A DNA stretch of 56,480 nucleotides from a virus (IMGVR_UViG_3300022200_000053:1-56480); one strand, 5' to 3'. Counted from the first letter of the stretch, positions 16,884 to 31,783 are shown. Numbers and translations are program-made. Notes: generated by a model not told the origin, from the letters alone.

Positions 16884-16950
16884 TAGCTGGTGCGAAGGGA
16901 GGTTCGATTCCTCCCATCAGACTTGCCCTCAGCGGAGATGGGCACCGCAC
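16880..16950 (+). repeat. Family A element 1 (tRNA-elbow mimic plus TGCCC/GGGCA domain)
   Basis: CTGAT/ATCAG outer stem and GGGAGG-TTCGATT-CCTCCC T-arm, then TTGCCCTCAGCGGAGATGGGCACCGCAC; identical to copy 4. Confidence 0.9.
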
Positions 16951-16964
16951 AACAGGAGATTCCA

Positions 16965-17159: not shown

Positions 17160-17232
17160 GTACAAGGCGTGATGCCGGGGGATCGAATCCCCTACTCAGT
17201 TATTGCCCAGTACGCAGAGATGGGCACTGCAC
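17154..17232 (+). repeat. Family A element 2
   Basis: AACTGAGTA/TACTCAGTT stem, GGC-GTGAT-GCC hairpin, GGGGG-ATCGAAT-CCCCT arm, then TGCCC...GCAG.AGAT.GGGCA.CTGC. Confidence 0.9.
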
Positions 17233-17247
17233 AATCAGGAGATCCCT

Positions 17248-17388
17248 GTGGGTTACAAGCATCTTTCGGCGGTAGAGCGCCGCATCGTTTTCCAGACCTG
17301 GAAAGCATGGCAGCTTTATCCGGTGCCAAAGCACTGGGTACAGCAGGCCATCCAGGAAGCCCTGATTAATTTCAGGTCTCCCAACTGA
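17248..17388 (+). CDS. Small hypothetical protein
   Basis: GTG start after an AGGAG RBS, between two family-A elements. Confidence 0.6.
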   Translation: MGYKHLSAVERRIVFQTWKAWQLYPVPKHWVQQAIQEALINFRSPN

Positions 17389-17459
17389 TCCGTAAAAGCG
17401 GTCATCCCCGGTGCAATGCCGGGGTCAGTTATTGCCCCCAGCGGAGATGGGCACCGCAC
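17383..17459 (+). repeat. Family A element 3
   Basis: AACTGA/TCAGTT stem, CCG-TAAAAG-CGG hairpin, CCCCGG-TGCAATG-CCGGGG arm, then the conserved 3' domain. Confidence 0.9.
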
Positions 17460-17472
17460 CACGGAGCAACTC

Positions 17473-17610
17473 ATGGCTATCCGTAAGAACCTTGCCAAGA
17501 CCCTGATCAACGCCGCCAAGGCGGTGGAGAAGGATCAGACAAAAGAACGCATCCAGAAATGGGTGCATGACTCAAGGTTCAAGCTTGCAAAGGTTATTGA
17601 ACCTAACTGA
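17473..17610 (+). CDS. Small basic hypothetical protein
   Basis: MAIRKNLAKTLINAAKAV...; GGAG RBS. Confidence 0.65.
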   Translation: MAIRKNLAKTLINAAKAVEKDQTKERIQKWVHDSRFKLAKVIEPN

Positions 17611-17677
17611 TAGCTGGTGCGAAGGGAGGTTCGATTCCTCCCATCAGACTTGCCCTCAGCGGAGATGGGCACCGCAC
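17607..17677 (+). repeat. Family A element 4
   Basis: Exact copy of element 1. Confidence 0.9.
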
Positions 17678-17692
17678 AACCAGGAGTTTCCT

Positions 17693-17872
17693 GTGACCAA
17701 GCTTATTGCTTCCTACGTAATCATTGCCGCATTCATCATGGGCATTGGTGGACAGATTATTGTTCACCAACTGGACAAGGCTACGGCTGAGCAATGCCGT
17801 ACACACGACTGGCCGAAGGAGGCCGACCAGATCCACAGGGACTGGTGCATTGGTAACGGCTACCAGATCTAG
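17693..17872 (+). CDS. Small membrane-anchored protein, paralog of 16965-17159
   Basis: GTG start with AGGAG RBS; LDKATAEQCRTHDWP...CIGNGY. Confidence 0.75.
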   Translation: MTKLIASYVIIAAFIMGIGGQIIVHQLDKATAEQCRTHDWPKEADQIHRDWCIGNGYQI

Positions 17873-17946
17873 CTGATCCGTTAAAGCGGGTTGGGAGGTG
17901 CGAACCCTCCCACAGTTATTGCCCTTAGCGGAGATGGGCACCGCAC
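17870..17946 (+). repeat. Family A element 5
   Basis: CCG-TTAAAG-CGG hairpin, TGGGAGG-TGCGAAC-CCTCCCA arm, conserved 3' domain. Confidence 0.9.
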
Positions 17947-17960
17947 ACTAACTCAGCTCA

Positions 17961-18149
17961 ATGGACATCCTCTACTTCACCCTGACCACCGAAGATGCTG
18001 TCTACAAGTTCCAGGTCAACAAGGCAGAGAACTTGGTGCGTGTCACCAAGATGATTCTCAAGAACAAGTGCTTTGGAGAGTGGCATCGTTCCACGTCAAT
18101 GACTGTAGACGCAGGGCGAAAGCTCGTGCGTCAACTACAGGCCAGGTGA
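17961..18149 (+). CDS. Small hypothetical protein
   Basis: 62 aa between family-A elements. Confidence 0.65.
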   Translation: MDILYFTLTTEDAVYKFQVNKAENLVRVTKMILKNKCFGEWHRSTSMTVDAGRKLVRQLQAR

Positions 18150-18217
18150 GTATAGCTCCCAAGCCAGGTGCAATGCCTGGCTCTGGTCATTGCCCCCAGC
18201 GGAGATGGGCACCGCAC
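18140..18217 (+). repeat. Family A element 6
   Basis: GGCCAG/CTGGTC stem, GAG-TATAG-CTC hairpin, AGCCAGG-TGCAATG-CCTGGCT arm, conserved 3' domain. Confidence 0.85.
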
Positions 18218-18233
18218 ACTCGGAACTAACAAC

Positions 18234-18425
18234 GTGTTCTTCGTTGTTCTCAACAACCAGCAGCACAGTGCACACTTCTGCCAAGAAGATGCGTACATCG
18301 AAGCTGCTCAACTGGACCACATGCTCAACTCTCCAGAGTTGAACGATGGAGTCCAGAACTTCAACGAGGTATCCGTTCTCTCCTTCGTGGAGATGATGGA
18401 GTCTCCGGTTGAGATGGTCATCTGA
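18234..18425 (+). CDS. Small acidic hypothetical protein
   Basis: GTG start, between family-A elements. Confidence 0.55.
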   Translation: MFFVVLNNQQHSAHFCQEDAYIEAAQLDHMLNSPELNDGVQNFNEVSVLSFVEMMESPVEMVI

Positions 18426-18492
18426 CCAGGCGTGATGCCGGGGGATCGAATCCCCCACTCAACCATTGCCCCCACGGGAGATGGGCACCCAC
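18407..18492 (+). repeat. Family A element 7 (near-cloverleaf)
   Basis: GGTTGAG/CTCAACC 7-bp stem enclosing TGGTC..GACCA, GGC-GTGAT-GCC and GGGGG-ATCGAAT-CCCCC hairpins; 3' domain carries the GGG/CCC variant. Confidence 0.85.
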
Positions 18493-18506
18493 ACATGGAG
18501 AGATCC

Positions 18507-18809
18507 ATGCACGTCTACCAGCTTACCGAGAATCCTCGTGATTCGTTTTACGGTGGCGATGATTTGTCCACTGTCATCGGTTATTACGCTTCTAAGCGTA
18601 AAGCAGATGCCAAGGCTGTAGAGCTATCAGCTCGACAAGCTAAGGAAGAAGAGCTGGATTGGATTACCAATCCTTGCGAATGCGGTGATCGCCAGTGTGA
18701 TCGCCGTGACAAGTTCTTCACATCTTGGCATGTGGACAGAATTGATCTAACTGAGTTGTCGATGCGGCGACTCATGGAGATCGAGTTGGCTGATGCCGAC
18801 GAAGACTGA
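18507..18809 (+). CDS. Hypothetical protein with a CxC-x4-C cluster
   Basis: GGAG RBS; MHVYQLTENPRDS...PCECGDRQC. Confidence 0.65.
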   Translation: MHVYQLTENPRDSFYGGDDLSTVIGYYASKRKADAKAVELSARQAKEEELDWITNPCECGDRQCDRRDKFFTSWHVDRIDLTELSMRRLMEIELADADED

Positions 18810-18879
18810 TCCGTCAAAGCGGGTGACCAGGTGCAAACCCTGGTCCAGTTATTGCCCCCAGCGGAGATGGGCACCGCAC
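18804..18879 (+). repeat. Family A element 8
   Basis: CCG-TCAAAG-CGG hairpin, GACCAGG-TGCAAAC-CCTGGTC arm, conserved 3' domain. Confidence 0.9.
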
Positions 18880-18893
18880 ACCAGGAGTTTCCT

Positions 18894-19088
18894 GTGGACC
18901 AAGCTCTTGCTTACACTCTTGAAGTGCTGATCTCCCTTCGTGAGGCAGCAATTGAAGATTGCTGTCAGAGAATGGTTAGCCATGAAACCTGCATGGCCGA
19001 GATGGTTGATCGTTTCATTAAGGCTAATGATCCGAATGGTGAGATTGCCAGGAAGGTCTATGCCTCAATGTTTAGGTCAGACCACTAA
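18894..19088 (+). CDS. Small hypothetical protein
   Basis: GTG start after AGGAG. Confidence 0.6.
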   Translation: MDQALAYTLEVLISLREAAIEDCCQRMVSHETCMAEMVDRFIKANDPNGEIARKVYASMFRSDH

Positions 19089-19089
19089 T

Positions 19090-19159
19090 TAGCTGATCCG
19101 TTAAAGCGGGAGGCAGGGTGCGATCCCCTGCCCAGTTATTGCCACCCACCGAGGGTGGC
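19090..19159 (+). repeat. Family A element 9 (divergent 3' hairpin)
   Basis: CCG-TTAAAG-CGG hairpin and GGCAGGG-TGCGATC-CCCTGCC arm, then GCCACCC-ACCGA-GGGTGGC. Confidence 0.85.
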
Positions 19160-19171
19160 TTACACAAGATC

Positions 19172-19432
19172 ATGCAACCTCTAATCTATCAACCCAAGCA
19201 CGAACATAAGTATCGTGTCGCATGGTATGGCAGTAGCACCCAGCTTCACTTCCAGAAGTACTGCTTAGTTGCCACGCCTGATTTTGATGGAGATTACGAG
19301 TGGATCGACATCGATGTCCGTAATCTCATGGGTGGCCTTCCGAATGGTGTTAAGGAATTGCACCAGGAGATGGAAGATTATTACAACTATGGCATAGTCC
19401 AGGAACAGGACTATGCTGCATCACTTGTCTAA
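19172..19432 (+). CDS. Hypothetical protein
   Basis: MQPLIYQPKHEHKYRVAW..., downstream of element A9. Confidence 0.65.
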   Translation: MQPLIYQPKHEHKYRVAWYGSSTQLHFQKYCLVATPDFDGDYEWIDIDVRNLMGGLPNGVKELHQEMEDYYNYGIVQEQDYAASLV

Positions 19433-19457
19433 CAATCTAGCCTTTTATTTCAGTTAA

Positions 19458-19673
19458 TTGATCATGCAACGTAACGAATTTGTTGACGCTTGTGTTGCTA
19501 TTGTCATTGGCACTGGTAGTGGCTTACTCCTATCTGTTGGAGCACAGAAGTCGCTCAACAACCACTACAAAGCAACGTGCAATGACAGACCAGGACACAA
19601 CCTTGTCTACGCCCACGGACTCTTAGGTGATACTTACTATTGCGTTAAGAGTAAGTACGTAAGTATCAACTGA
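19458..19673 (+). CDS. Small membrane protein
   Basis: N-terminal hydrophobic helix. Confidence 0.55.
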   Translation: MIMQRNEFVDACVAIVIGTGSGLLLSVGAQKSLNNHYKATCNDRPGHNLVYAHGLLGDTYYCVKSKYVSIN

Positions 19674-19674
19674 T

Positions 19675-19720
19675 CTCTGCTCTAAGGGGCTTCGGCCCTT
19701 TACTGCAGGGTTCTCCTGCA
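19675..19720 (+). repeat. Family D element 1 (UUCG hairpin plus second hairpin)
   Basis: AAGGGGC-TTCG-GCCCTTT followed by TGCAGG-GTTCT-CCTGCA. Confidence 0.6.
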
Positions 19721-19748
19721 TCCACTCAACTCAACCCAAGCTAGTTCC

Positions 19749-19988
19749 ATGAACTACCAAGCTGTTGAACATCTCCTCACCCAGGATGCTCGTCTCCTGG
19801 CACGTCGAGATTCTCCTGTCATTGACCAAGAGCTGGAAGAACAGCGTCAAGCTGCACTCGATCTCTTCTTCCAGTGGCAGGATGGTATGTGTCAGTTCCA
19901 AGAGCTGATGCCATTCGTTGCTATCATCCAACGCAAGGTGGATCTCAACAGAGATCTGCTGCGTTGGGAACGTAAGCATGAAGACTGA
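19749..19988 (+). CDS. Hypothetical protein
   Basis: 79 aa with a C/A-rich leader. Confidence 0.65.
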   Translation: MNYQAVEHLLTQDARLLARRDSPVIDQELEEQRQAALDLFFQWQDGMCQFQELMPFVAIIQRKVDLNRDLLRWERKHED

Positions 19989-19989
19989 A

Positions 19990-20038
19990 TCCTGATCGGA
20001 GGGGCTTCGGCCCTTCCCACCAGGACTCAATATCCTGG
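19990..20038 (+). repeat. Family D element 2
   Basis: GGAGGGGC-TTCG-GCCCTTCC followed by CCAGGA-CTCAATA-TCCTGG. Confidence 0.6.
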
Positions 20039-20063
20039 GCACTAAACCCATTGTTACTACGGA

Positions 20064-20330
20064 ATGGCAATTTCAATTGACTACCACGACATCACAGCAG
20101 CTTGTGAAAAGTTCAGGCTTAAGCCCACAGATTATTACCTTGAATTCAACGATCAAGTTGTTTATATGTACTGGGTTGCATGCCCAGTTGATATATATGA
20201 CTACATGAAAGGTGATATGACGTGCCTTGATTTTCAACGTAAAGGCAAGTGGCTCAGCTTTGAAGAATGCTCTGATCAATATGAAGAGCGTCCATTCACA
20301 AACATGCGTTACATCCTGGAGACTATCTGA
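20064..20330 (+). CDS. Hypothetical protein
   Basis: 88 aa. Confidence 0.6.
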   Translation: MAISIDYHDITAACEKFRLKPTDYYLEFNDQVVYMYWVACPVDIYDYMKGDMTCLDFQRKGKWLSFEECSDQYEERPFTNMRYILETI

Positions 20331-20521
20331 TGAAGACGATCTACCGCCTTGGGAAAGGCTACGTCCACATGGATTCTTATCCTGAGACACATGAGACTCG
20401 CCCTTCTATTGCAGTAGTCCTCCTCTCCCTCCTCCTTGCCGCCATCACCGGCGGGGCATTGGTTGGTGTGGATATCACCAAGCCACAACCTGAGGTGTCG
20501 CATCACATCACTGGCTACTAA
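20330..20521 (+). CDS. Small membrane protein
   Basis: Central TM helix IAVVLLSLLLAAITGGALVGV. Confidence 0.6.
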   Translation: MKTIYRLGKGYVHMDSYPETHETRPSIAVVLLSLLLAAITGGALVGVDITKPQPEVSHHITGY

Positions 20522-20531
20522 CCACTGAACT

Positions 20532-20571
20532 ACCTGGGCATCACACGATCACGTGTGTGTAAGTCCCAGGT
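20532..20571 (+). repeat. Family B element 1
   Basis: ACCTGGG-CAT-[CACACG ATCA CGTGTG]-TGTAAGT-CCCAGGT. Confidence 0.9.
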
Positions 20572-20594
20572 CCAACCCTCATCCTCTCGATACC

Positions 20595-20942
20595 ATGACA
20601 ACTCAACTCAAAGAACACATCCAAGTTCTGGAGGCTCGAATCCAGTGCCTGATCGACGCAATGCTCGCCAAGTACGAGAAGGAGTACCAAGTGGGTGGCA
20701 TTGAATTTGAAATTGTGAAAGGCACCAAGTACTACAAGCTGATTGAGAAGAGCACCAGGGCATCAGGAATGGGTGGTACATCTGTCCATGCATTTATTGA
20801 TCGTCAGTCCGGATCTGTCATGAAACCAGCAAGTTGGAAATCACCTGCAAAGCATGTGAGGTACAATCTGATGGATGATGTTTCATATGCTGAATGTCTT
20901 GAGCGTTGTGATTGGGCAGGTGTTTACCTCTACCTTAAATAA
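20595..20942 (+). CDS. Conserved phage hypothetical protein (SVHAF..KPASWKxPAKHVRYNL family)
   Basis: Motif recognised from cyanophage hypothetical proteins. Confidence 0.7.
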   Translation: MTTQLKEHIQVLEARIQCLIDAMLAKYEKEYQVGGIEFEIVKGTKYYKLIEKSTRASGMGGTSVHAFIDRQSGSVMKPASWKSPAKHVRYNLMDDVSYAECLERCDWAGVYLYLK

Positions 20943-20944
20943 CC

Positions 20945-21391
20945 ATGGGATTTAGAACACCTGAGCAAAGGCGGCGTTATTTGCAGAACCGTTATCAACA
21001 ACGGATTCAACAATGCCGCGCTTTATTAGGAGGAAAGTGTGTCAAGTGCGGATGCACTGAAAAGCTGGAGTTTGACCACATCGATCCACTCACAAAGACG
21101 GCATCTATTTCAAGATTGCTTGCCAATGGCAATAAAGCTGACCTTGAGAAAGAGCTACAGAAGTGCCAGTTGTTATGCAATTCATGCCATGTAGCTAAAA
21201 CAGCTGAGAAGAAAGAGAACGTAACCAATGTTAAGTCTTGGTTAATAACCAAGAAAGATTCAAGTACTGTTGTCTGCACCAACTTGTCTCAATGGTGCAA
21301 AGACAATGGCTATAAAGAGCAAGTCTTACGAGACATTGCTAGGAACAGAAGATCATTGAAGTGCGACATTGCTTTTGTGGTCAAATTGTAA
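20945..21391 (+). CDS. HNH endonuclease
   Basis: CVKCG...LEFDHIDP...KCQLLCNSCH. Confidence 0.85.
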   Translation: MGFRTPEQRRRYLQNRYQQRIQQCRALLGGKCVKCGCTEKLEFDHIDPLTKTASISRLLANGNKADLEKELQKCQLLCNSCHVAKTAEKKENVTNVKSWLITKKDSSTVVCTNLSQWCKDNGYKEQVLRDIARNRRSLKCDIAFVVKL

Positions 21392-21396
21392 ACTCC

Positions 21397-21442
21397 TGGG
21401 CATCCTTATTGAGAACTCTTCTCAATAGTGGTGTAAGTCCCA
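21397..21442 (+). repeat. Family B element 2
   Basis: TGGG-CAT-[CC..TATTGAGAA CTC TTCTCAATA..GG]-TGTAAGT-CCCA. Confidence 0.9.
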
Positions 21443-21473
21443 ATCAACTTTCATTCATCACCTGAACATTCCA

Positions 21474-21848
21474 ATGCGCACTCGTATCTCTATCGTCAAA
21501 GAGAACAGGATTTGGAATCTGCGTTGTCAAGGTTACTGCTACGACTCTATCGGTAGCATTGTCAACTGCAACCCTACATCAATCACACGTGTCATCAAGC
21601 GTGTCCGTAACCGTCCACCAGTTGAACAAGATCCTATCCGACGTGGAAGATTGCATTCATTCCTGAGTGATGAGCAGGTAGAAGACATCCGTACACGCAA
21701 GGCTAACGGTGAATCTGCTGTCAAACTTGCAGATGATTACACCGTAACTATTGGTGCCATCTACCACATCACAACGCACCGTACTTACAAGGAACCTTGT
21801 GGTGATGGTGGCTACACATATAACTTTCGTAATCGCTTGATGCGTTAA
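21474..21848 (+). CDS. Helix-turn-helix DNA-binding protein
   Basis: Two HTH-like segments (GYCYDSIGSIVNCNPTSITRVI; GESAVKLADDYTVTIGAIYHI). Confidence 0.65.
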   Translation: MRTRISIVKENRIWNLRCQGYCYDSIGSIVNCNPTSITRVIKRVRNRPPVEQDPIRRGRLHSFLSDEQVEDIRTRKANGESAVKLADDYTVTIGAIYHITTHRTYKEPCGDGGYTYNFRNRLMR

Positions 21849-21850
21849 TC

Positions 21851-21901
21851 CCTGGGCATCCACACCATAATGATTACGTTATGTGTGGTGTAAGTCCCAG
21901 G
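21851..21901 (+). repeat. Family B element 3
   Basis: CCTGGG-CAT-[CCACAC.CATAA..TTATG.TGTGG]-TGTAAGT-CCCAGG. Confidence 0.9.
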
Positions 21902-21928
21902 TTCCTGTCTACTTAGTCAACTCAAATT

Positions 21929-22108
21929 ATGTACAGCAACTACGAAGCAGACTACATGGATGCAATGGCTGATCGCCTTGCTGACATTGATGATGCCATC
22001 CGTGAATCTGAGCAAGATGAATGGGGTGGTGTCGAAGAGATCTCGGCAGAAGAACGTTATGCCTGTGAGCTCTACAACGAACGTAACGTCTACCCTTACT
22101 ACGACTGA
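21929..22108 (+). CDS. Very acidic small protein (59 aa, not in ORF track)
   Basis: MYSNYEADYMDAMADRLADIDDAIRESEQDEW...; follows element B3 and a C/A-rich leader. Confidence 0.6.
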   Translation: MYSNYEADYMDAMADRLADIDDAIRESEQDEWGGVEEISAEERYACELYNERNVYPYYD

Positions 22109-22215
22109 ACCATGCCTACCAAGAAGATCAATCCATGGCAGCAGGCATGGGATGACGGTGACATCATCCTCATCCTTCTTGCTGTCATCTCACTCATCAT
22201 CACTGAACTTGCATC

Positions 22216-22584
22216 ATGTCTTATCTCAGCTGGCTCCAAGCAACCTACCCACGCACCTGGAAACTCCGGCGTGCAATCAACAGCTACAACATCCACAAAG
22301 AGTGGGAAGGTGAAGAGCCAACCACGATCACGATCCACGAAACCTACCAGTGTTACGGAGGACCCGAAGAAGGCGGCTGGTGGTACAACCAAGGCTGGCC
22401 CGTCCAAACCATCTGCATCTTCAACAAGAAGCAAGCGATCAAAGAATACATCCAGTACGCAGACGACTACGAAGTCTGGGACCAACCAGACCTCGGGCTC
22501 ACGTCGACGCGTTCGAACTATGACGTCAACTTCGCGAACGACTTTGCCAAGCACTATCCTGAACAGCGACCTGTCTATTGCTAA
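22216..22584 (+). CDS. Conserved phage protein (YGGPEEGGWW motif)
   Basis: Motif common in phage hypothetical proteins. Confidence 0.7.
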   Translation: MSYLSWLQATYPRTWKLRRAINSYNIHKEWEGEEPTTITIHETYQCYGGPEEGGWWYNQGWPVQTICIFNKKQAIKEYIQYADDYEVWDQPDLGLTSTRSNYDVNFANDFAKHYPEQRPVYC

Positions 22585-22832
22585 TGCCTGAGACCCTTGC
22601 ATTCCCTGGTCTACGGATCACGCAACGGAATCTGTATCAATACTTCTTGGCACACAAGAAGAAGTACAAGAACACACCGTGTTATGTACCAAGGATTCCA
22701 ATGCAGAACTCAAGGCTTGATCAATATCTCAATGCATTGGTCAAGCTTGAGGAGTACGGATTGATATCTGTTGACAGAAGTAGTGATAACTACACAGGCT
22801 GGATCATCACAGATCCTAAGACTGTCGCATAA
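22578..22832 (+). CDS. Winged-helix-like small protein
   Basis: TQRNLYQYF...YLNALVKLEEYGLISV pattern. Confidence 0.55.
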   Translation: MLMPETLAFPGLRITQRNLYQYFLAHKKKYKNTPCYVPRIPMQNSRLDQYLNALVKLEEYGLISVDRSSDNYTGWIITDPKTVA

Positions 22833-22902
22833 CATCATAACACTTCTGTAGTATTGGTTGGTATTGGTCATTAGGCAATACATGCCAATACTACAGTCCA
22901 CA

Positions 22903-22940
22903 CCTGGGCATCCACCTATCATGGTGGTGTAAGTCCCAGG
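22903..22940 (+). repeat. Family B element 4
   Basis: CCTGGG-CAT-[CCACC TATCAT GGTGG]-TGTAAGT-CCCAGG. Confidence 0.9.
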
Positions 22941-22969
22941 ACTTTCCATTTACTTCACACCCAAACACA

Positions 22970-23242
22970 ATGACTCAAGTTAACGCTTCCATTCAGAACG
23001 AGTACTACTATCTCGAAGAGGTGCGCTCCATCTTGAAGAATGTTCTTGCCCGTGAAAGCAAGCGTCATCAAATGGATCAACACCTTGCACCACAAACTGA
23101 AGGTGTCGTAGAAGAAATCCTTGCCATGCTTGAAGAGGAACTTGACTACGATCCCACACCTTCGGAGCAAGGCGAGCCGCCTATCACAATGTATGAACTG
23201 CATGATGCCGCATGGAAACAACATGTGGCCATGCACTCATGA
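22970..23242 (+). CDS. Hypothetical protein
   Basis: 90 aa after element B4. Confidence 0.65.
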   Translation: MTQVNASIQNEYYYLEEVRSILKNVLARESKRHQMDQHLAPQTEGVVEEILAMLEEELDYDPTPSEQGEPPITMYELHDAAWKQHVAMHS

Positions 23243-23426
23243 GTGATCCAAGCCTTGCTGGCATCTAGATAGTACATAAGTATTCCCCCCTCACACTCCC
23301 CGGTGGAGTACCAGGGGGGATCTATGTCTTATATAAGAACTTATTATGTACACTCCTCTATCTAGTACTTGCATTACCTGGTAGACTAACCCAGTCTTTA
23401 GACCACATCACATCAACTCAACACCA

Positions 23427-23639
23427 ATGACTAATCCCAACACTCCTCGTATTCCTGACTCACTTGACATGCAACGACTGCAAGCTATGCAGCTCGTAGC
23501 CAAGATGAAAGAATCAGCTGAGAAACATGGCATTGGATTCATCGGTGGATTCATTTCTCCCAATGGAGAGAAGTTTGTCATGACAAATATGGATGATCAA
23601 GATGACATCAACGCACTCATGCCGGAGGATCTTAAGTAA
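23427..23639 (+). CDS. Hypothetical protein
   Basis: 70 aa with a C/A-rich leader. Confidence 0.65.
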   Translation: MTNPNTPRIPDSLDMQRLQAMQLVAKMKESAEKHGIGFIGGFISPNGEKFVMTNMDDQDDINALMPEDLK

Positions 23640-23693
23640 ATTTAGATCAGAGCACGGTTTGTACCGTGCTCTAAACATTAATCATCTAATTAC

Positions 23694-23894
23694 ATGGCAC
23701 AAGAGAAATCACCTATCAACTTTGACAAAACTATTGCTGGATTCAATGTTACAGAACATGGAATCAAATCGTACAGCAAATCATTTAAACTTGGTCCATT
23801 CCAACTCACACTCAATGCACGTGAGTCTGGTGTGCGTGGATCAATCAGTATCCCTGGCACTGGACTAAGCAAACGAAACATTAAATTAATCTAA
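23694..23894 (+). CDS. DUF4236-like small protein
   Basis: KSFKLGPFQLTLN...SISIPGTGLS resembles DUF4236. Confidence 0.55.
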   Translation: MAQEKSPINFDKTIAGFNVTEHGIKSYSKSFKLGPFQLTLNARESGVRGSISIPGTGLSKRNIKLI

Positions 23895-23897
23895 AGA

Positions 23898-23983
23898 TTG
23901 GGCATCTAACAGAATACATCCTCCCCTCACACTCCCCTAGTGGAGTACCAAGGGGATCTTTTATTCTTTAGTGTAAGTCCTAG
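23898..23983 (+). repeat. Family B element 5 (long insert)
   Basis: TTGGG-CAT-[CTAA...long hairpin...TTAG]-TGTAAGT-CCTAG. Confidence 0.8.
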
Positions 23984-24011
23984 GTTTATTCTCTATTTAC
24001 TTAACACAAAC

Positions 24012-24218
24012 ATGACTGATACCAAGCTCGACGAATTCCACGCAAAAGCAGCACAACTCATTCGTGCAATTATTATCAACGCAATTAAAGACACTGCCGA
24101 TTGTCATTGGCGTGTTGCTGAAGGACCAGAGGAAGGTAGCCAGATGGTTCGTGTCCGTGACCTAATGGCATGGGCCGAACAAACTGCATCCAACCTGGAG
24201 AAAACTGATGACAACTGA
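24012..24218 (+). CDS. Hypothetical protein
   Basis: MTDTKLDEFH..., after element B5. Confidence 0.6.
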   Translation: MTDTKLDEFHAKAAQLIRAIIINAIKDTADCHWRVAEGPEEGSQMVRVRDLMAWAEQTASNLEKTDDN

Positions 24219-24576
24219 ACCAAACCCAGCATTGAAATTAGGTGACTTAATAGAACAGCTTGAATCAGACATTGATTGCTATAAGATTAGCACGAGCGAG
24301 GCTCTTGCACGTGCCTATGCCGCTGGCGCTGATCAGCAACTTGCAGAAGACGCAAAGTGGCTAGATCACCATGCTCTGAATGCAGCACATCTAAAAACTA
24401 TTCCCGTAGGTGACTTGCTAAAAGAAGCTATGCGTCCCAAACCGCCGAGCTTAAAGGCACAGGCACTGCAGGCTCTTGCAAATGCAGACGGTGCTGATCA
24501 TCCGGTGGTTGCCACTGTCCTCACTGCAGATCAACACGCGCTGATCCGCCGCGCTCTTGAACTCTTACCTGACTAA
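24208..24576 (+). CDS. Hypothetical protein, paralog of 30747-31079
   Basis: Shares GADx(Q/E)L...RPxPxSLKxQAL...IRRALExLPD. Confidence 0.7.
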   Translation: MTTEPNPALKLGDLIEQLESDIDCYKISTSEALARAYAAGADQQLAEDAKWLDHHALNAAHLKTIPVGDLLKEAMRPKPPSLKAQALQALANADGADHPVVATVLTADQHALIRRALELLPD

Positions 24577-24581
24577 ACACC

Positions 24582-24899
24582 ATGCCTAAGAAACCTGAAC
24601 TCAATCCGCACTTTCCATCTGGACCACGAACAATTACTCTTGACCTTGAAGAGAACCAATGGTGGCATCTTATTTATACCCTTAGGGGTGAAATTGATAA
24701 CTACAAGACACTTCGACTTGATCTTGTTAATAGAGGCAAAGAGAAGTACAAAGAGCACATTGATTTGTATACAGACAGCATTCGAAATACAATCTCTCTT
24801 CTCGAGTCTCTTGAGACACAGATTGCTCCTTTGTATTTCACCAGGGATAGACAAGCTGAATACAGAAAGCGCAAGCTTGACACTATAGAATTTGATTAA
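24582..24899 (+). CDS. Hypothetical protein
   Basis: 105 aa. Confidence 0.6.
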   Translation: MPKKPELNPHFPSGPRTITLDLEENQWWHLIYTLRGEIDNYKTLRLDLVNRGKEKYKEHIDLYTDSIRNTISLLESLETQIAPLYFTRDRQAEYRKRKLDTIEFD

Positions 24900-24902
24900 A
24901 GC

Positions 24903-24958
24903 TTGGGCGTCTGTACTCGTTGTGCAAACAGCACAGAAGGAGGCAGTGTAAGTCCCAA
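24903..24958 (+). repeat. Family B element 6
   Basis: TTGGG-CGT-[CTG...TGTGC AAACA GCACA...CAG]-TGTAAGT-CCCAA. Confidence 0.85.
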
Positions 24959-24988
24959 TGTCCACACCACTCTTATCTCAACTCAACC

Positions 24989-25174
24989 ATGCAAACATTT
25001 GAATCCAATCTTAATCTTTTTCAACGTAACAACATTGCTTCTTGTGCAATACAACGTGCTAAAGAACACCTCTGTGACAACGATCGTTTTGATGGAGAGT
25101 ACGCAACTGTAAAGATGTGGACACGTTACAAGTGTCACATCTCGACCACTGTTTCTTTTGTGGAGCCTGACTGA
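24989..25174 (+). CDS. Hypothetical protein
   Basis: MQTFESNLNLF..., after element B6. Confidence 0.55.
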   Translation: MQTFESNLNLFQRNNIASCAIQRAKEHLCDNDRFDGEYATVKMWTRYKCHISTTVSFVEPD

Positions 25175-25428
25175 TGACTGTTCTTGCCATTGAACATACT
25201 TCATTCATTGATGATACCCATGTCACAATTACAGCAGTTGTTGACGAGATGCGCCTGCTCTATCGGGCAACTCATTTCGAACCTGAAGAGTGGGCTCCTG
25301 CTCTTTGCATTACAACTATCCAGCTGGATCCAGAGGAACCGATTCCTCTTGACGAAGATGGCTTCTGCAGCTATCTTGATCACCTCGATCCTGACTGGCA
25401 AATCGTTGACACCTCAGACGAACAATGA
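25174..25428 (+). CDS. Acidic hypothetical protein
   Basis: 84 aa, coupled start/stop. Confidence 0.65.
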   Translation: MTVLAIEHTSFIDDTHVTITAVVDEMRLLYRATHFEPEEWAPALCITTIQLDPEEPIPLDEDGFCSYLDHLDPDWQIVDTSDEQ

Positions 25429-25580
25429 TTGGCTTCTCAATTGAATTCAAGCGTTGGTATGTGATTGTACGTGGTCCCAAAGGACGTACGTACTTGGCAA
25501 CTGGTTTTGCTAAATGCATGCCAATCATCACACCAACCGGTACCTACACCATTGATCAATACTTAGGACAGTAATGATCA

Positions 25581-25608
25581 CGTCCTGGGCATGACGTTAA
25601 ACTGTCCA
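25581..25608 (+). repeat. Family C pseudoknot 1
   Basis: CGTC-CT-GGGCA-T-GACG-TTAAAC-TGTCC. Confidence 0.9.
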
Positions 25609-25630
25609 TTCCCTTTACCTATTCAATTCA

Positions 25631-25831
25631 ATGCAATTCCAAATTACCAAAATACACTTTGATTTGGATTCTAATGATTTAATTCAGCAACCAAATCTTC
25701 AAGAAAGTTTACAAGAAGAATATGTTGGTCAAATTTGGGAAGCAGACGACGAAGATGACTTAGTTGAAGAGCTAACCTGTGCAACAGGCTGGTGCATTAA
25801 GTCTATAGATTATCGTCACATTCTCAATTGA
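25631..25831 (+). CDS. Small acidic cyanophage-type hypothetical protein
   Basis: WEADDEDDLVEELTCATGWCIKSIDY motif. Confidence 0.7.
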   Translation: MQFQITKIHFDLDSNDLIQQPNLQESLQEEYVGQIWEADDEDDLVEELTCATGWCIKSIDYRHILN

Positions 25832-25836
25832 CCAAC

Positions 25837-25864
25837 CGTCCTGGGCATGACGTTAAACTGCCTA
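25837..25864 (+). repeat. Family C pseudoknot 2
   Basis: CGTC-CT-GGGCA-T-GACG-TTAAAC-TGCCT. Confidence 0.9.
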
Positions 25865-25889
25865 CACTTAACTCAACCCCAACCGCATC

Positions 25890-27617
25890 ATGCAATTTTC
25901 TCTTCCTTCTAACCTGCAACAAGAGCTCCTGGCTTACGATCCAAAGCTCAAAGCTTTAGCTAAGGAGACCAAGGTCAAGACAACCAAGAAGCCTAAGTTT
26001 CCTCTTGGTAAGATTCCTTGCCTCATCCCTACACACATTGTGCGTGAACAACTGCAGCTTGATGCAGTCGAACAGATCAATGCATCGCCTGCAGCAGAAC
26101 GTTTCCATCGATTTACCAAGGTGGTAGATGTTGCTACACCACAAGCACGTACTATCACCACAGCTATTCTGTATCACTTTGAACAATGCTGGTATGCAGC
26201 ATGGCTACCTGGTAAAGATGATGACTACATCTATGGTTACTCTTATGCATTCAAAGATACTGCTGCTGCAGCTAAGGTTGTTCCTAATCAAATCTGGAAT
26301 AGCCGCGAGCATTACAACCAATATGACTTAGGTCGCGGCAGTATTCTTTACTACTGCACTGTATATATGACTAGGAAAGCAATCATTAATGGTGATGATT
26401 CCAGGCGTTGGCGTGCTATTGGTTTATCATCTTGGTCACAGAAAGGACGTGAGATAGCTACTGCACTTTCTCAGTTTGAAGAAGCATTGCAAGCGACTAT
26501 TCCCACATGGACCGATAGTCGTTCTATGTTTGATCGTATCAGCTGTAAAGATATCTGGGATGCACTTGAGATTCCTAGGTTGATGTTCCAGAATGTTACT
26601 AATAAATCACAGCTCTCTCTAACAGTTGATACGTTTATTACCTTGGCCAATAACTGGAGCAATACTGTTAATTACTCATCAACTAGTTATCACATCCTGA
26701 CGCACATCTCCCATATTATCTCAAAGCCTGCGATCAAGAAAAGATTACAGGCTTCACTTGATCGGTCTCTTGTTGCTTACCAAGATGTGACCACAGAGAA
26801 ACGCAAGCAAGTCAAGTATGGCTACAAAGAATTCAGTAAGGTATGTAACTCTATCTATAAGATCAATTGCATCTGGCCTGATACTCCTATTGATCATTAC
26901 CTGAACTACTACGAAGAACTGCGTACATTAGATATTGAGCATTTGCGTACCAGTGGGGTATCGGGTTCTTCTTTATTGATTACTTGGTTGCAAGAAAATA
27001 TGCCCGTTGCATCATTTTTTAACATGGTACGGAAGACCAAAGAAAAGTATGACGCAGAACGTAGTCGTCTCAGCAATTACTCTGATTATGACTACATCAC
27101 TCATAGTCTTTATGAGATGAATGACACATTCTCCATGCTTACTCGTTTGCTTGAGAATGGAAAGATTGTTGAACCTCCCAAGCGTTGGAGGATGCCTGAC
27201 TTCCATGACTATGTGCAAGCAGAGAACTGGAAGATCCAGAACCCTAAGCTCAAGCTGCACCAAGACCTCTTCCCTCAGCCTATCAAGATTGATGTAGCTG
27301 GCGAGACTTGGACTTTCCTGCAGCCTATTGATACGCATCAGCTAGCTGCTTGGGGACAAGCAGTACGTAACTGTGTCGGATCTGCCTCTCACTACGCAGA
27401 AGACATTAAGAAACGTAAGCACTTCATTGTTTTGTGCATGGTAGGTAGCAAGCCAACCTTCACGATTCAGATGGATGTATCCATGGGTGTCATGAACGTC
27501 AAACAAATTGCTGGCGTTGCTAACCAGCGGTTGTCTGATGAGGAACGCGACAAGTACAGCGCTGCCTTCAAGCAGGCTTTACAGCAGCGTGAAAAGCAGC
27601 TAGCATCTGAGAGCTGA
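25890..27617 (+). CDS. PcfJ-domain protein
   Basis: C-terminal HD...QLAAWGQAVRNCVGS...FTI...QIAGVAN pattern typical of PcfJ-like domains. Confidence 0.75.
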   Translation: MQFSLPSNLQQELLAYDPKLKALAKETKVKTTKKPKFPLGKIPCLIPTHIVREQLQLDAVEQINASPAAERFHRFTKVVDVATPQARTITTAILYHFEQCWYAAWLPGKDDDYIYGYSYAFKDTAAAAKVVPNQIWNSREHYNQYDLGRGSILYYCTVYMTRKAIINGDDSRRWRAIGLSSWSQKGREIATALSQFEEALQATIPTWTDSRSMFDRISCKDIWDALEIPRLMFQNVTNKSQLSLTVDTFITLANNWSNTVNYSSTSYHILTHISHIISKPAIKKRLQASLDRSLVAYQDVTTEKRKQVKYGYKEFSKVCNSIYKINCIWPDTPIDHYLNYYEELRTLDIEHLRTSGVSGSSLLITWLQENMPVASFFNMVRKTKEKYDAERSRLSNYSDYDYITHSLYEMNDTFSMLTRLLENGKIVEPPKRWRMPDFHDYVQAENWKIQNPKLKLHQDLFPQPIKIDVAGETWTFLQPIDTHQLAAWGQAVRNCVGSASHYAEDIKKRKHFIVLCMVGSKPTFTIQMDVSMGVMNVKQIAGVANQRLSDEERDKYSAAFKQALQQREKQLASES

Positions 27618-27650
27618 AGCCAAGGCAAGGGGCGTCTATCCTCGTTATAG

Positions 27651-27890
27651 ATGCTCTGTTTATCTATGCCTGATTACACAGACGATCAGCTACTTGCCAT
27701 GGCTATGGCAAATCTTGGAGAGTACATCCATGAAAACTCACCTCGTTATGTATTAATTGAAGATCCTCGCAACGAGGATGACTACGATAGCTGGACTTAC
27801 GGAATGGAAGTCCTGCCGCAAGATCACACTTGGCAGTCAACATCAATTGATGTTGATGTAAGTCCAAGTGATGCAGATATGGCGGAATAG
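27651..27890 (+). CDS. Acidic hypothetical protein
   Basis: Likely start is MPDYTDDQ; the 3' end overlaps element B7 and the tRNA. Confidence 0.45.
   Translation: MLCLSMPDYTDDQLLAMAMANLGEYIHENSPRYVLIEDPRNEDDYDSWTYGMEVLPQDHTWQSTSIDVDVSPSDADMAE
27827..27870 (+). repeat. Family B element 7 (directly 5' of tRNA-Leu)
   Basis: CACTTGG-CAG-[TCAACATC AATT GATGTTGA]-TGTAAGT-CCAAGTG. Confidence 0.8.
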
Positions 27891-27958
27891 GTAGACGCAA
27901 CGGACTTAAAATCCGTAGGCCACTGGCCGTGAGAGTTCGAGTCTCTCTATCTGCACCA
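27873..27958 (+). tRNA. trnL: tRNA-Leu(TAA)
   Basis: GCAGATA/TATCTGC acceptor stem, GGTAGACGC D-arm, ACGGA-CTTAAAA-TCCGT anticodon arm, long variable arm, GTTCGAG T-loop and encoded CCA. Confidence 0.95.
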
Positions 27959-27980
27959 ACCCATCACATCACACAACACC

Positions 27981-28343
27981 ATGCAAATCTTTGCTGCATT
28001 CAAACACCTCATCCCTGAATTCCATGCATACTCTGACGAGGACAAGCGTTACAACATTGGTGCTACCTGGACTGCTGCTGATGGGCTCCAGGACTTTCAC
28101 AACCTAGAGCTACGGTATGTCCGTAACTCTGAGAGGCTTGCGCTCCAAGGTGATCCACAGCCTGATGGAAGCTGGAAGTATGTCGAACCCAATGGCTGCG
28201 TCCATACCATCTCCGCTGAACGTGCTAAGCACTTTATGGAGCAGACCCAAGCACATGCACACATCGTGTGTGACATGCTCGATAAGCTAAGGGAGTCTGG
28301 TATAGGGCAGGAAGTCCTGGACACACAAGCCCATCCCGCATAG
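27981..28343 (+). CDS. Hypothetical protein
   Basis: 120 aa with a C/A-rich leader. Confidence 0.65.
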   Translation: MQIFAAFKHLIPEFHAYSDEDKRYNIGATWTAADGLQDFHNLELRYVRNSERLALQGDPQPDGSWKYVEPNGCVHTISAERAKHFMEQTQAHAHIVCDMLDKLRESGIGQEVLDTQAHPA

Positions 28344-28371
28344 AATCTCTGAGGAATGTTCGGCCCCTGCA

Positions 28372-28764
28372 ATGCAGGGGTCTTTCTCTATGACAAATGA
28401 AACCCAAACTGGACTCATTGATCTTGACCTTGTTGACAAAGTCCATGCAATGATTCCCAAGTCAACATGGCCTGTTGTTACCAAGGGTGTTGTCTCTTAT
28501 ATCGTTGACAACATGCCTGGTTCTGTTGTTGAACAACTGACGGGTTCATACACTGACTTCGAAGAAGCAGAGAAGATTCTCTTGAGTTATTACCAAGATG
28601 AATCCAGGTCTGATGGTAAAGAATTGATCACTGATTCTTTTGGCATTCTTGGTGCAGAGAATATCCTTTACTACTTGGATTCACTGCAACTTGATAAGCT
28701 AGCTGATCATCTAAACAACAAGACTCCCACTGAAGATGACATTTCAGAAACAGGAGAGGGGTAA
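28372..28764 (+). CDS. Hypothetical protein
   Basis: 130 aa; start may be MTNETQ. Confidence 0.65.
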   Translation: MQGSFSMTNETQTGLIDLDLVDKVHAMIPKSTWPVVTKGVVSYIVDNMPGSVVEQLTGSYTDFEEAEKILLSYYQDESRSDGKELITDSFGILGAENILYYLDSLQLDKLADHLNNKTPTEDDISETGEG

Positions 28765-29101
28765 ATGCCCAAGCTGTAATGGTCTTGGTGTATGGACCAT
28801 CCAATCACGTAAAGCTACACATGGTCAAAGGCGACGCAAAGAGTGCAGGCTCTGTGGCCATCGCTTCACCACATATGAGATTTCATCTGAGGACTATGCC
28901 AAGTATGATCACTTCCTTTACATGCATGAAGAATTATGTAGACGATTGGGTACATTCGAGGTAAAGCCTGCAACTGAGGATAAGATCACGTGCATCACAT
29001 GCGCCCATAACAAAGGTGATACATGTGACTACGACTTCCCTGAGTACAACACATCCGATTCATCTGATTGCATTCACTATGAGTTCGAAACGTCAGTTTG
29101 A
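28736..29101 (+). CDS. NrdR-like zinc-ribbon protein lacking an ATP-cone
   Basis: CPSC...RRRKECRLCGHRFTTYE plus a second Cys cluster. Confidence 0.7.
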   Translation: MTFQKQERGKCPSCNGLGVWTIQSRKATHGQRRRKECRLCGHRFTTYEISSEDYAKYDHFLYMHEELCRRLGTFEVKPATEDKITCITCAHNKGDTCDYDFPEYNTSDSSDCIHYEFETSV

Positions 29102-29381
29102 TTACCGTATTGGTGATCGTGTTGCCGAACGTCCTAAGACTCATGGCTTGTTCACCAGGTCACCTGAGTTACGTCAACAGCTACAGAAGTACCGCACTCA
29201 GCGGTACGGAACTGTGGTAGGGATGAGCACCAGGGTAAATAAGAATGGTGCACGCTTTAAAGTTCTTCTTATCCAATGGGATGGACTTAAGACACCATCT
29301 GAACATGCACGCATGCGCATCTGTCCTGCCTCAGAAATTGCACGCCTTACTAACGAAGTTGTGGTGCCAGGAGATATGTAA
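29016..29381 (+). CDS. Hypothetical protein
   Basis: Likely start is MSSKRQF; YRIGDRV SH3-like pattern. Confidence 0.55.
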   Translation: MIHVTTTSLSTTHPIHLIAFTMSSKRQFDYRIGDRVAERPKTHGLFTRSPELRQQLQKYRTQRYGTVVGMSTRVNKNGARFKVLLIQWDGLKTPSEHARMRICPASEIARLTNEVVVPGDM

Positions 29382-29383
29382 GC

Positions 29384-29593
29384 ATGGATGATCTACAGAA
29401 AGCTTTTCTGCGTGGTGCATGCGTTACCATCCTTGGCTTTGCAGCAACTGGTTTGTTGGCATCAATCTTCTTGACGCCTGATGAACCCAAAGACACATCT
29501 AAGTTTGAAGTCCTTGATCAGTATCAGGGTTGCTCAGTAATCCGATACACTGATCCAACATCACGTTGGCATTATTTCCTTAAGTGTTCATGA
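29384..29593 (+). CDS. Small membrane protein
   Basis: TM helix plus FEVLDQYQGCSVIRYT motif. Confidence 0.65.
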   Translation: MDDLQKAFLRGACVTILGFAATGLLASIFLTPDEPKDTSKFEVLDQYQGCSVIRYTDPTSRWHYFLKCS

Positions 29594-30315
29594 TTAACGA
29601 TCCTTACTTCCGTGTTGATGTCCTTAATAGGACAGAGAATCCTCAGACGCTGTGCTGGTATGCGATGCATCAAGACTACAGCGAAGAGTATGTGTTCAAT
29701 GAAGATCCACCGTCTGAAACAGAAGCTGGCAATTTAATTGTCAAGCATCTGCTAGCAGGTGAGCGTGGTCATTACGGACCACTGGAACATCCTTCTATCA
29801 CATTCAATGTTGGATGGTTTCCACACTCAGTAATGCAACAAGCACGCACCCATCGTGTTGGTGTCAGCTTTGATGTGCAGTCCGGTAGGTATACCGGTAA
29901 GCGCATCATGGATGTGCATAAAACTAAACGTAAACCAGAAGAAGTGTTTTACCTCAGACCTGTTGGTGAGTACACCGATAGGTCTGGTAAGCGGTATAGA
30001 TACGGCATGCAGGAACGCAATGATGATATTGCAGAATGTCTTGTTGCTTCCGCTCATTACGTTGACAAGATTGAAAAAGGATACGCAGAGGAACATGCAC
30101 GTGACATGATTCCTTACGCAATCCGTCAACACTTTGTTGTGTCATTCAATCTTCGTAGTGCACTTCACTTCATGGACTTACGTTCCAAGAAGGATGCACA
30201 AGAAGAGATCCGTGCCATGTGTGATCTCATGTGGCCGCACCTCCAAATATGGGCACCAGAGGTCACGGCCTGGTACGAGAAGACTCGCTTGCACAAGGCA
30301 AGACTGGCTCCCTAG
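29590..30315 (+). CDS. thyX: Flavin-dependent thymidylate synthase
   Basis: GHYGPLEH and RTHRVGVSFDVQSGRY ThyX signature; NLRSALHFMDLR and AQxEIR. Confidence 0.95.
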   Translation: MINDPYFRVDVLNRTENPQTLCWYAMHQDYSEEYVFNEDPPSETEAGNLIVKHLLAGERGHYGPLEHPSITFNVGWFPHSVMQQARTHRVGVSFDVQSGRYTGKRIMDVHKTKRKPEEVFYLRPVGEYTDRSGKRYRYGMQERNDDIAECLVASAHYVDKIEKGYAEEHARDMIPYAIRQHFVVSFNLRSALHFMDLRSKKDAQEEIRAMCDLMWPHLQIWAPEVTAWYEKTRLHKARLAP

Positions 30316-31720: not shown

Positions 31721-31725
31721 ATTAT

Positions 31726-31753: not shown

Positions 31754-31783
31754 TTAGTTTTCTTTATCATTCAACTCAACATC

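Follow-up and report, generated by a model that had tools for sequence, protein, structure and literature searches.

A covarying bulged hairpin repeated ahead of genes and tRNAs in S-EIV1-type cyanophages, possibly an RNA leader or punctuation element

Introduction

What is the role of a short hairpin that recurs seven times on one strand of a viral DNA, each time around a different inner sequence? The DNA is IMGVR_UViG_3300022200_000053:1-56480, a full-length IMG/VR virus record of 56,480 bases with a completeness estimate of 71%, and this whole stretch is referred to below as the window. A previous reading made from the sequence alone (the sequence-only reading) had described a motif whose conserved halves pair with each other around freely variable hairpins, and had proposed an internal loop acting in RNA or single-stranded DNA. 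The only named relative found is Synechococcus phage S-EIV1 (KJ410740, 79 kb), with 79% identity to the window's 787-aa virion protein. S-EIV1-type phages are a widespread, almost unannotated freshwater and polar cyanophage lineage, and we found no description in print of how they control gene expression.

Here we report that this bulged-hairpin motif is real and belongs to a large family; its structure and family are solid, and the mechanism is what we infer. We tentatively read the motif as a structured RNA leader or punctuation element, whose internal loop may be recognised by a host factor and probably processed there. No description of the motif turned up among the papers listed for S-EIV1 or for its literal strings, a search that lay outside the original S-EIV1 genome paper and its supplements, which might mention intergenic repeats.

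Results

Seven bulged hairpins on one strand

All seven copies that had been claimed are present, on the plus strand between 20532 and 27870, in the order outer stem, GG, C-A, one bulged base, hairpin, T-G, TAAGT, CC, outer stem (Table 1). The covarying outer stems quoted in the sequence-only reading (CCTGGG/CCCAGG, TTGGG/CCCAA and CACTTGG/CCAAGTG) are correct, and the inner hairpins do vary in length and have unrelated sequences. The 5' block CAT, given as part of the consensus, holds in five copies; it is replaced by CGT in copy 6, which makes a G-U pair with the T of TG, and by CAG in copy 7. Single-sequence folds of the copies (z -1.3 to -3.9) gave an outer stem and an inner hairpin; UG is taken up by pairing with CA, and UAAGU is left single-stranded. 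The asymmetric internal loop is therefore present, with an extent that has to be corrected to 1 x 5 (U / UAAGU), since CA pairs with UG in the minimum-energy folds.

The letters TGTAAGT occur nine times on the plus strand of the window, seven of them inside 20532-27870. On its own the 7-mer shows no enrichment over the window (11 matches, where shuffles average 7.5 and 12 of 100 shuffles reach 11). The composite GGGCATC-N10-40-TGTAAGTCC gave four forward and no reverse matches, and its backwards control gave none on either strand. A covariance model, R1, built from other contigs plus two window copies, scored six of the seven copies with E from 1e-11 to 1.5e-3. It missed copy 5 because of its long 66-nt insert, and this copy folds like the others.

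Covariation and orientation in an independent sample

To obtain a sample independent of the motif, 25 loci were picked by a PcfJ-like protein (46-62% identity), with no use of the motif in the choice. Of the 25 loci, 23 had R1 matches at E<=1, 97 in total, and 93 of the matches lay on the gene strand, the remaining four being weak and AT-rich. When the window and S-EIV1 were included and the cut-off was set at E<=0.05, there were 99 matches, every one co-oriented with the genes. Among 63 distinct matches, 90.9% of the pair cells were paired, against 26.5-46.9% with slid partners, and changes on both sides were seen at 8 of 13 pairs, so that both helices covary; this alignment was fitted to the R1 model, which favours structure. 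A MAFFT alignment (A1), which had been selected for outer stems, showed 97% pairing at the inner-helix pairs, for which it had not been selected. RNAalifold predicts the same structure as the single-sequence folds. The claim of single-stranded folding is thus borne out by covariation of both helices in an independently ascertained sample.

The letters that are invariant in this sample are GGC...TAAGTCC only. The two letters ahead of TAAGT are mostly TG, and TA, CG, GG or TT occur as well; the invariance claimed for TGTAAGT accordingly fails across relatives (TATAAGT, CGTAAGT, GGTAAGT, TTTAAGT) and stands for the shorter set. Two coaxial helices, the outer stem on one side and CA/UG with its free-form hairpin on the other, surround the 1 x 5 loop. 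The loop is clamped by invariant G-C, G-C and C-G pairs, and the CA/UG pairing has G-U instead of A-U in 11 of 50 scored distinct matches when read on the sense strand.

Size and spread of the family

Pattern scans of IMG/VR with a split 16-base pattern and with a stricter 22-base pattern each gave at least 119 stretches, and in 596 Gb of prokaryote genomes the 22-base pattern matched once, in a 2.5-kb contig of a metagenome-assembled genome. The first locus set held 209 candidate instances; 159 have an outer stem of at least 4 pairs and represent 115 distinct variants, with stems such as CTGGG/CCCAG, ATGGG/CCCAT, GTGGG/CCCAC, CTAGG/CCTAG, TTGG/CCAA and AAAGG/CCTTT. Their inner hairpins range from a CC-loop-GG of 7-8 nt to more than 90 nt and have unrelated sequences. 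Proteins in common with the window were found in 59 of the 119 first-scan loci, among the matches listed. Many of the other 60 are chance matches without the fold, and several are copies, from other types of phage, in which the fold is clear.

Complete relatives carry 4-8 copies per genome, on one strand and within 8.2-8.5 kb, and S-EIV1 has two. Five non-S-EIV1 records, two of which are complete genomes, hold a single copy each; these phages are unrelated, and their genomes measure 34 kb to 258 kb. When four of these five records were tested, the window's 1118-aa protein was found in none and its 90-aa protein (22970-23242) in one. The latter was considered as a travelling partner of the motif and rejected, being absent from four of five records; the complete genome G004 has its homologue at a distance of 2 kb, on the opposite strand. 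Because unrelated phages have single copies without common phage proteins, a factor acting in trans would most simply come from the host. R1 also provides a sensitive metagenome marker for S-EIV1-type phages.

Placement ahead of reading frames and tRNAs

In 73 distinct contexts, the motif starts 1-10 nt past an upstream stop codon in 32, and an ATG that opens an open reading frame (ORF) follows 22-31 nt past the motif in 52. In the window, copy 2 begins 2 nt past the stop of the HNH ORF 20945-21391, and copy 3 begins 1 nt past the upstream stop at 21848. The distance from TAAGT to ATG has a mode of 34-35 nt and lies between 25 and 42 in 176 of 201 cases. The leader between them is G-poor, lacks a Shine-Dalgarno sequence and usually has ACTCAAYTCAA beside the ATG. 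Window examples of leaders without a Shine-Dalgarno sequence are 20572-20594, 22942-22969 and 31754-31783. The motif points to a natural insulator-like part before tRNAs and before such leaders.

A tRNA lies downstream of 32 of 272 distinct copies (Leu-UAA 25, Leu-UAG 2, Thr 2, Gly 2, Asn 1), in 30 of these at 1-7 nt from the end of the stem. In all 30 close cases, which cover five tRNA identities, the tRNA 5' end is 8-11 nt past TAAGT. Copy 7 ends 2 nt ahead of its tRNA-Leu, an arrangement that is orthologous in most relatives. A 79-aa ORF (27651-27890, plus strand), which tblastn matches in 23 loci show to be conserved, spans copy 7 and reaches 18 nt into this tRNA; its stop differs among relatives.

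Two unrelated viral contigs (L021:3870-4000 and L056:1270-1400) have the motif between a near-consensus sigma-70 promoter and a tRNA (Gly-UCC and Leu-UAG, respectively). The promoters are TTGACA-N18-TATGAT and TTTACA-N17-TATAAT with TG, and end 9 or 23 nt upstream of the motif-plus-tRNA unit, so that in these two lineages the motif would fall inside the transcript. In one lineage with this promoter-motif-tRNA order the apical loops are rich in ACC repeats.

Two pairings of the bulge were tried and rejected. A pseudoknot between UAAGU and ACUUA in the leader is not a general feature (ACTTA in 9 of 52 leaders, 3.2 expected), and pairing with the anticodon loop of tRNA-Leu(UAA) was discarded because Thr, Asn, Gly and Leu(UAG) tRNAs stand behind the motif too.

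A sister pseudoknot family and a third family

The same gene cluster holds a sister family, CGTC-C-TGGGCA-T-GACG-TTAAAC-TGCCYA, of which a repeat finder gave six window copies (Table 1) and a regular expression eight. It stands ahead of replication genes, 26-28 nt upstream of their start codons. The sequence forms an H-type pseudoknot with a 1-nt loop 1, a 6-bp stem 2, a 1-nt junction, a 4-bp stem 1 and a 6-nt A-rich loop 3. In 91 distinct sequences from many contigs, 96% of the pair cells are paired, against 21-47% with slid partners, and both helices covary, with stem variants TGAGCA/TGCTCA, TGGACA/TGTCCA and CAAGCA/TGCTTG. Internal positions show 44 wobble cells and 16 non-pairs. The GGGCA-like block varies freely with compensation, which means that pairing is kept and not sequence. 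A pseudoknot requires a long single strand, for which duplex DNA or a cruciform is unfit, and the sister family thus favours RNA over duplex DNA. No Rfam match was found at E<=5 for the two pseudoknot copies scanned.

On contig L007 a bulged hairpin precedes the orthologous GP88-like gene where the window has the pseudoknot; since the two families swap ahead of this gene, they are interchangeable. The GP88-like ORF, called mechanically as 31724-32545, probably starts at the in-frame ATG 31784, its first 60 bases being the pseudoknot element plus leader. Ahead of this ATG is the same kind of leader as behind the bulged hairpin. An equal spacing from box to ATG in both families was considered and rejected (mode 34-35 for the bulged hairpin, 26-28 for the pseudoknot).

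A third family starts directly at the stop codons that precede it. Its hairpin is GC-rich, the stem covaries and the 7-nt loop is T-loop-like (as in GGGAGG-TTCGATT-CCTCCC); a block TTGCCC...GGAGATGGGCACCGCAC (TTGCCC...GCGG-AGATGGGCA-CCGC, with two competing pairings) comes next, followed by AGGAG and then ATG or GTG. Its GGGCACC is common to the Syn5 promoter. AGGAG is a real Shine-Dalgarno sequence; as it stands behind the third family and none stands behind the other two, one operon has two classes of translation start. Three covarying families of structured elements punctuate one 30-kb co-directional gene cluster.

Table 1. Structured elements on the window and the tRNA behind copy 7 (R1, bit score of the covariance model; z, folding z-score)
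Feature	Position	Strand	Structure	Next feature	Scores
Bulged hairpin, copy 1	20532-20571	+	ACCTGGG-CA-T-(16-nt hairpin)-TG-TAAGT-CCCAGGT	ATG 20595	z -2.85; R1 46.4 bits
Bulged hairpin, copy 2	21394-21445	+	outer stem TGGG/CCCA; 28-nt hairpin	ATG 21474	R1 23.1 bits
Bulged hairpin, copy 3	21850-21902	+	outer stem CCTGGG/CCCAGG; 29-nt hairpin	ATG 21929	z -3.86; R1 45 bits
Bulged hairpin, copy 4	22902-22941	+	outer stem CCTGGG/CCCAGG; 16-nt hairpin	ATG 22970	R1 50 bits
Bulged hairpin, copy 5	23896-23985	+	outer stem TTGGG/CCTAG with G-U; 66-nt branched insert	ATG ~26 nt downstream	
Bulged hairpin, copy 6	24901-24960	+	outer stem TTGGG/CCCAA; 36-nt hairpin	ATG 28 nt downstream	R1 21.7 bits
Bulged hairpin, copy 7	27827-27870	+	outer stem CACTTGG/CCAAGTG; CAG for CAT; 20-nt hairpin	tRNA-Leu	R1 31.1 bits
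tRNA-Leu (UAA)	27873-27958	+	5' end 9 nt past TAAGT of copy 7		
Pseudoknot family	25582-25608, 25838-25864, 31727-31753, 35374-35400, 36735-36761, 39951-39977	+	intergenic		
Third family	16877-18897, 8 copies anchored at 16938, 17220, 17447, 17665, 17934, 18205, 18481, 18867	+			

Searches for known RNA families, promoters and polymerases

The sequence-only reading could fit the motif to no ribozyme or riboswitch consensus, and the search of Rfam 15, including hammerhead, twister, pistol, hatchet, HDV-like ribozymes and riboswitches, agrees with this. At gathering thresholds the whole window gave two tRNA matches only, and at E<=5 the region 16000-28100 gave only the tRNA and one chance match on its opposite strand. 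A DNA search with window 20000-28500 likewise had the tRNA as its sole match. Among RNA runs, none was listed as carrying sequence from 18500-28400.

Two-box sigma-70 sites (hexamers 16-18 bp apart) are depleted in 15500-30000, with 8 found against 21.8 +/- 4.5 in shuffles, and none of the eight coincides with a copy of the motif; terminator-like sites numbered 14 against 10.7 expected. A T7-type RNA polymerase (PF00940) was found in none of 14 motif-bearing records (0/5, 0/4 and 0/5), five of them complete, while the Syn5 control gave E 4.2e-77. Sigma region 2 was found in none of five records, its control being detected in 11 of 14 genomes. With neither a T7-type polymerase nor sigma region 2, these phages must use host holoenzymes.

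Genes around the elements

From 15.9 kb downward the minus strand carries structural and packaging genes (terminase; PHROG 'virion structural protein'). The plus strand from ~16.6 to 47 kb carries small ORFs and then replication genes (ThyX, GP88-like, DNA polymerase A, SSB, DUF5895, with a primase farther along). No RNase, RNA-binding protein, polymerase or sigma factor turned up in Pfam and PHROG scans of 40 window ORFs. The proteins encoded at 12515-15871 (1118 aa) and 44061-46445 (794 aa) gave no Pfam or PHROG family and no usable Atlas match.

Two HNH endonuclease genes lie on the plus strand among the early and replication genes, at 20945-21391 and 34645-35142, the latter with an AP2 domain; the former sits directly between two bulged-hairpin copies. 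A 293-aa ORF at 41089-41970 (minus strand) has weak protein-kinase-like matches under the Pfam cut-offs. A second tRNA-like Rfam match (46849-46919, minus strand, 42.3 bits) was not called by ARAGORN, and the motif is absent upstream of it. A strong terminator-like hairpin with a T-run lies at 16218-16238, after the first plus-strand ORF.

Discussion

A structured RNA leader or punctuation element

Given the covariation, the co-orientation with genes, the sense-strand wobbles, the interchangeable pseudoknot family and the promoters upstream of the motif in two lineages, we lean towards an action of the motif at the RNA level. It would be a cis-acting structured module on the sense transcript of a co-directional early/middle gene cluster, and may mark where each downstream RNA has its 5' limit. 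A host-supplied factor would recognise the loop together with the pairs that clamp it, and endonucleolytic processing in or beside the bulge seems the most likely action. Such a cut would split the polycistronic RNA into units; the upstream RNA would keep the variable hairpin at its 3' end, and downstream a single-stranded leader would be freed for use by the ribosome or RNase P. If so, a host enzyme may read the motif as a new kind of RNA processing or leader signal.

Several points weigh against this reading, which we hold with less than even confidence. Transcription through the element and any cleavage are steps that we infer, and sigma-70-like promoters are not enriched upstream overall: enrichment was looked for and rejected, as 5 of 269 scored at least 10/12 and two controls gave 4 and 1. 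The inner hairpins have no strand asymmetry (mean -5.95 kcal/mol sense, -5.73 antisense; 39 G-U pairs sense, 36 antisense), and flanked mismatches (7 G-U, 5 A-C) are too few to separate RNA from DNA. The smallest copies, with ~9 bp in all, fall short of a classical RNase III site and would make too weak a hairpin to protect a 3' end. A cleavage site right behind a promoter has no obvious use. The distance to the tRNA varies less when counted from TAAGT (sd 1.1) than when counted from the end of the stem (sd 1.85), and both the likeness of the box to a host promoter and the tRNA spacing fit a promoter at least as well.

A promoter within a selected fold

The second reading is therefore a promoter wrapped in a selected fold, which we regard as possible though somewhat doubtful. 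In this case (T)GTAAGTC would be a single -10/-12 element of the cyanobacterial SigF (group 3 sigma) type, transcription would start at the 3' foot of the stem, and GGCA would be conserved only through its pairing with the flanks of the box. Since GGCA is exactly what that pairing requires, only the box needs an explanation at sequence level. The stems would be a superimposed constraint, acting in read-through RNA or as a supercoil-extruded hairpin of the non-template strand that presents the box unpaired. The motif may then be a host alternative-sigma promoter hijacked by phages.

The spacing speaks for it: the tRNA 5' ends in all 30 close cases are at the distance expected between a -10 box and a start, and start codons follow at the modal 34-35 nt. 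The phages need host-type promoters and no others are visible, two-box sites being depleted, and a host sigma factor would explain the portability among unrelated phages. Cyanobacterial -10 boxes have the form TAnnnT, and the unpaired TAAACT of the sister family, which resembles a -10 box, fits it. The sequence-only reading had taken the variable spacing of the motif as evidence against a promoter or operator in duplex DNA. With conserved blocks 11 to ~100 nt apart (inner hairpin plus 4), a two-box promoter is ruled out; a one-box promoter with only the -10/-12 element stays compatible.

The sequence of the box is like that of a SigF promoter. For the pilA1 promoter of Synechocystis, recognised by SigF only, one study (PMC2532724) describes a GGG (-15 to -13), an AAG (-11 to -9), TAAGTT at -9 and TAGGCA at -31; the SigF core is given there as GGTAA in the -12 region and TAGGC in the -32 region, and the enzyme as preferring supercoiled templates. 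The motif, G (79%) T (87%) G (90%) TAAGT C, is identical to pilA1 at 7 of 9 aligned positions. GTAA of the -12 core is invariant in the motif. However, among 245 distinct copies the position of the first G of GGTAA holds T in 87% and G in only 4%. Neither the -32 box TAGGC at a fixed distance nor the AG-rich region was found in the motif, where a T[G/A/T]GGCA block lies paired and at variable distance. This TAGGC-like block is 11 to ~100 nt from the box, not at a fixed ~17, and is thus unusable as a -32 box in most copies. The predicted start position is a purine in only 27% of the 245 distinct copies (T in 49%), which counts against a promoter and for the RNA reading. A promoter also leaves unexplained the covarying stems that span the start site and the sister pseudoknot, in which the GGGCA-like block varies with compensation, so that pairing is what is kept. 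The promoter reading also presupposes that the hosts have SigF.

It is also conceivable, though unlikely, that the fold itself is the promoter, in that a supercoiling-extruded hairpin of the non-template strand presents a pre-melted TAAGT, between duplex clamps, to a SigF-like holoenzyme. The motif may then be a promoter working as a fold, a bacterial-polymerase counterpart of the N4 hairpin promoters, and the pseudoknot and 16.9-19.2 kb families would be further classes of structure-embedded promoters that time the infection.

Less probable readings

An antitermination or polymerase-modifying leader RNA in the style of HK022 put or lambda nut, an explanation to which we give little credence, would also suit the position of the motif, which opens each unit and in two lineages comes right after a sigma-70-like promoter. 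The nascent fold would bind the host polymerase or a small factor and make the polymerase resist pauses and termination in the gene or tRNA that follows. Binding to the host polymerase would explain portability without a phage partner, and an invariant internal loop on free stems, as seen here, is typical of protein-contacted RNA. On the other hand, the known put and nut sites are found once per operon and not ahead of every gene, whereas the motif is repeated; no terminators that would need suppressing were seen between the genes (14 terminator-like sites, 10.7 expected); and antitermination does not require the tight spacing to tRNA 5' ends.

A hairpin promoter of a phage-encoded single-subunit RNA polymerase (N4 early type or split Syn5), with a start at the G of TAAGT, is very improbable. 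N4 promoter hairpins have a fixed small size and a conserved loop; in the motif the length of the hairpin is not fixed and the GGGCA block varies with compensation. The attraction of this reading is the likeness to the Syn5 promoter, which is given as ATTGGGCACCCGTAA followed by G (PMC3950665) and of which two copies were seen in the Syn5 genome: GGGCA...GTAA|G is common to both, and the unpaired letters of the motif would lie at about -3 to +2, with the G invariant. Nevertheless, PF00940 is absent from all 14 motif-bearing records while the Syn5 control is positive, and the 1118-aa protein of the virion module is absent from the other motif-bearing genomes tested. Least probable of all is a small self-cleaving ribozyme or self-contained insulator with a catalytic internal loop and no protein, for although an invariant loop on variable stems, portability without a common protein and places before tRNAs and leaders are ribozyme-like, the motif has only ~7 unpaired conserved letters and two helices, every natural self-cleaving ribozyme class known to us is far larger, and the Rfam 15 ribozyme families gave no match even at E<=5. 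A small remainder of our confidence is assigned to none of these readings.

Comparison with known systems

The RNA leader or punctuation element that we favour is close in layout to the RNase III sites in the early region of T7, where hairpins that carry an asymmetric internal loop recur from gene to gene along a polycistronic unit. As in these sites, the conserved unpaired letters of the motif are on the 3' side, and a cut there would leave a hairpin upstream and a free leader downstream. A T7-type site has about two turns of double-stranded RNA interrupted by the internal loop, whereas the helices of the motif total ~9 to more than 30 bp, so that long copies reach this length and many others are too short for RNase III. 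The motif also differs in that its loop is invariant across very distant phages, that it stands before tRNAs as well and in phages of a cyanobacterial host, and that its cleavage is only predicted.

H-type pseudoknots, whose classic geometry the sister family has, include frameshift and readthrough signals and small riboswitch aptamers; the sister family differs from the former in lying in intergenic leaders upstream of ATG, not after slippery sites or in-frame stops. Integron attC sites are loosely alike in their conserved paired ends, extrahelical bases and variable centre, but the strict ~35-nt spacing to ATG and the association with tRNAs do not fit the ends of gene cassettes. That a phage promoter can act in the form of an extruded hairpin has a precedent in N4; in contrast to it, the hairpin of the motif measures 7 to more than 90 nt with unrelated loops, and no polymerase was found.

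The Syn5 promoter (PMC3950665) shares GGGCA...GTAA and the following G with the motif, and differs in that the motif has no cognate polymerase gene, a box split by a hairpin of free length and a 5' block that is compensated. SigF promoters (PMC2532724) are alike in GTAAGT, identical to -13 to -8 of pilA1, in a TAGGCA-like block upstream and in the promoter-like spacing from box to tRNA. They differ in the first G of the core, usually T in the motif, and in the paired block at variable distance, the lack of an AG-rich tract and the covarying stems.

The PeSLs of T4-like phages are described (PMC4122927, PMC2839356) as composite terminator/promoter cassettes in which a stem-loop is followed by a two-box sigma-70 promoter. 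The conserved halves of the motif, unlike these cassettes, flank the hairpin, pair with each other and contain no sigma-70 boxes. Both are short conserved cassettes that are repeated in a plastic, ORFan-rich region, with a stem-loop sequence that varies from copy to copy. PeSLs probably ease modular gene exchange, and here the motif and its sister family swap ahead of orthologous genes.

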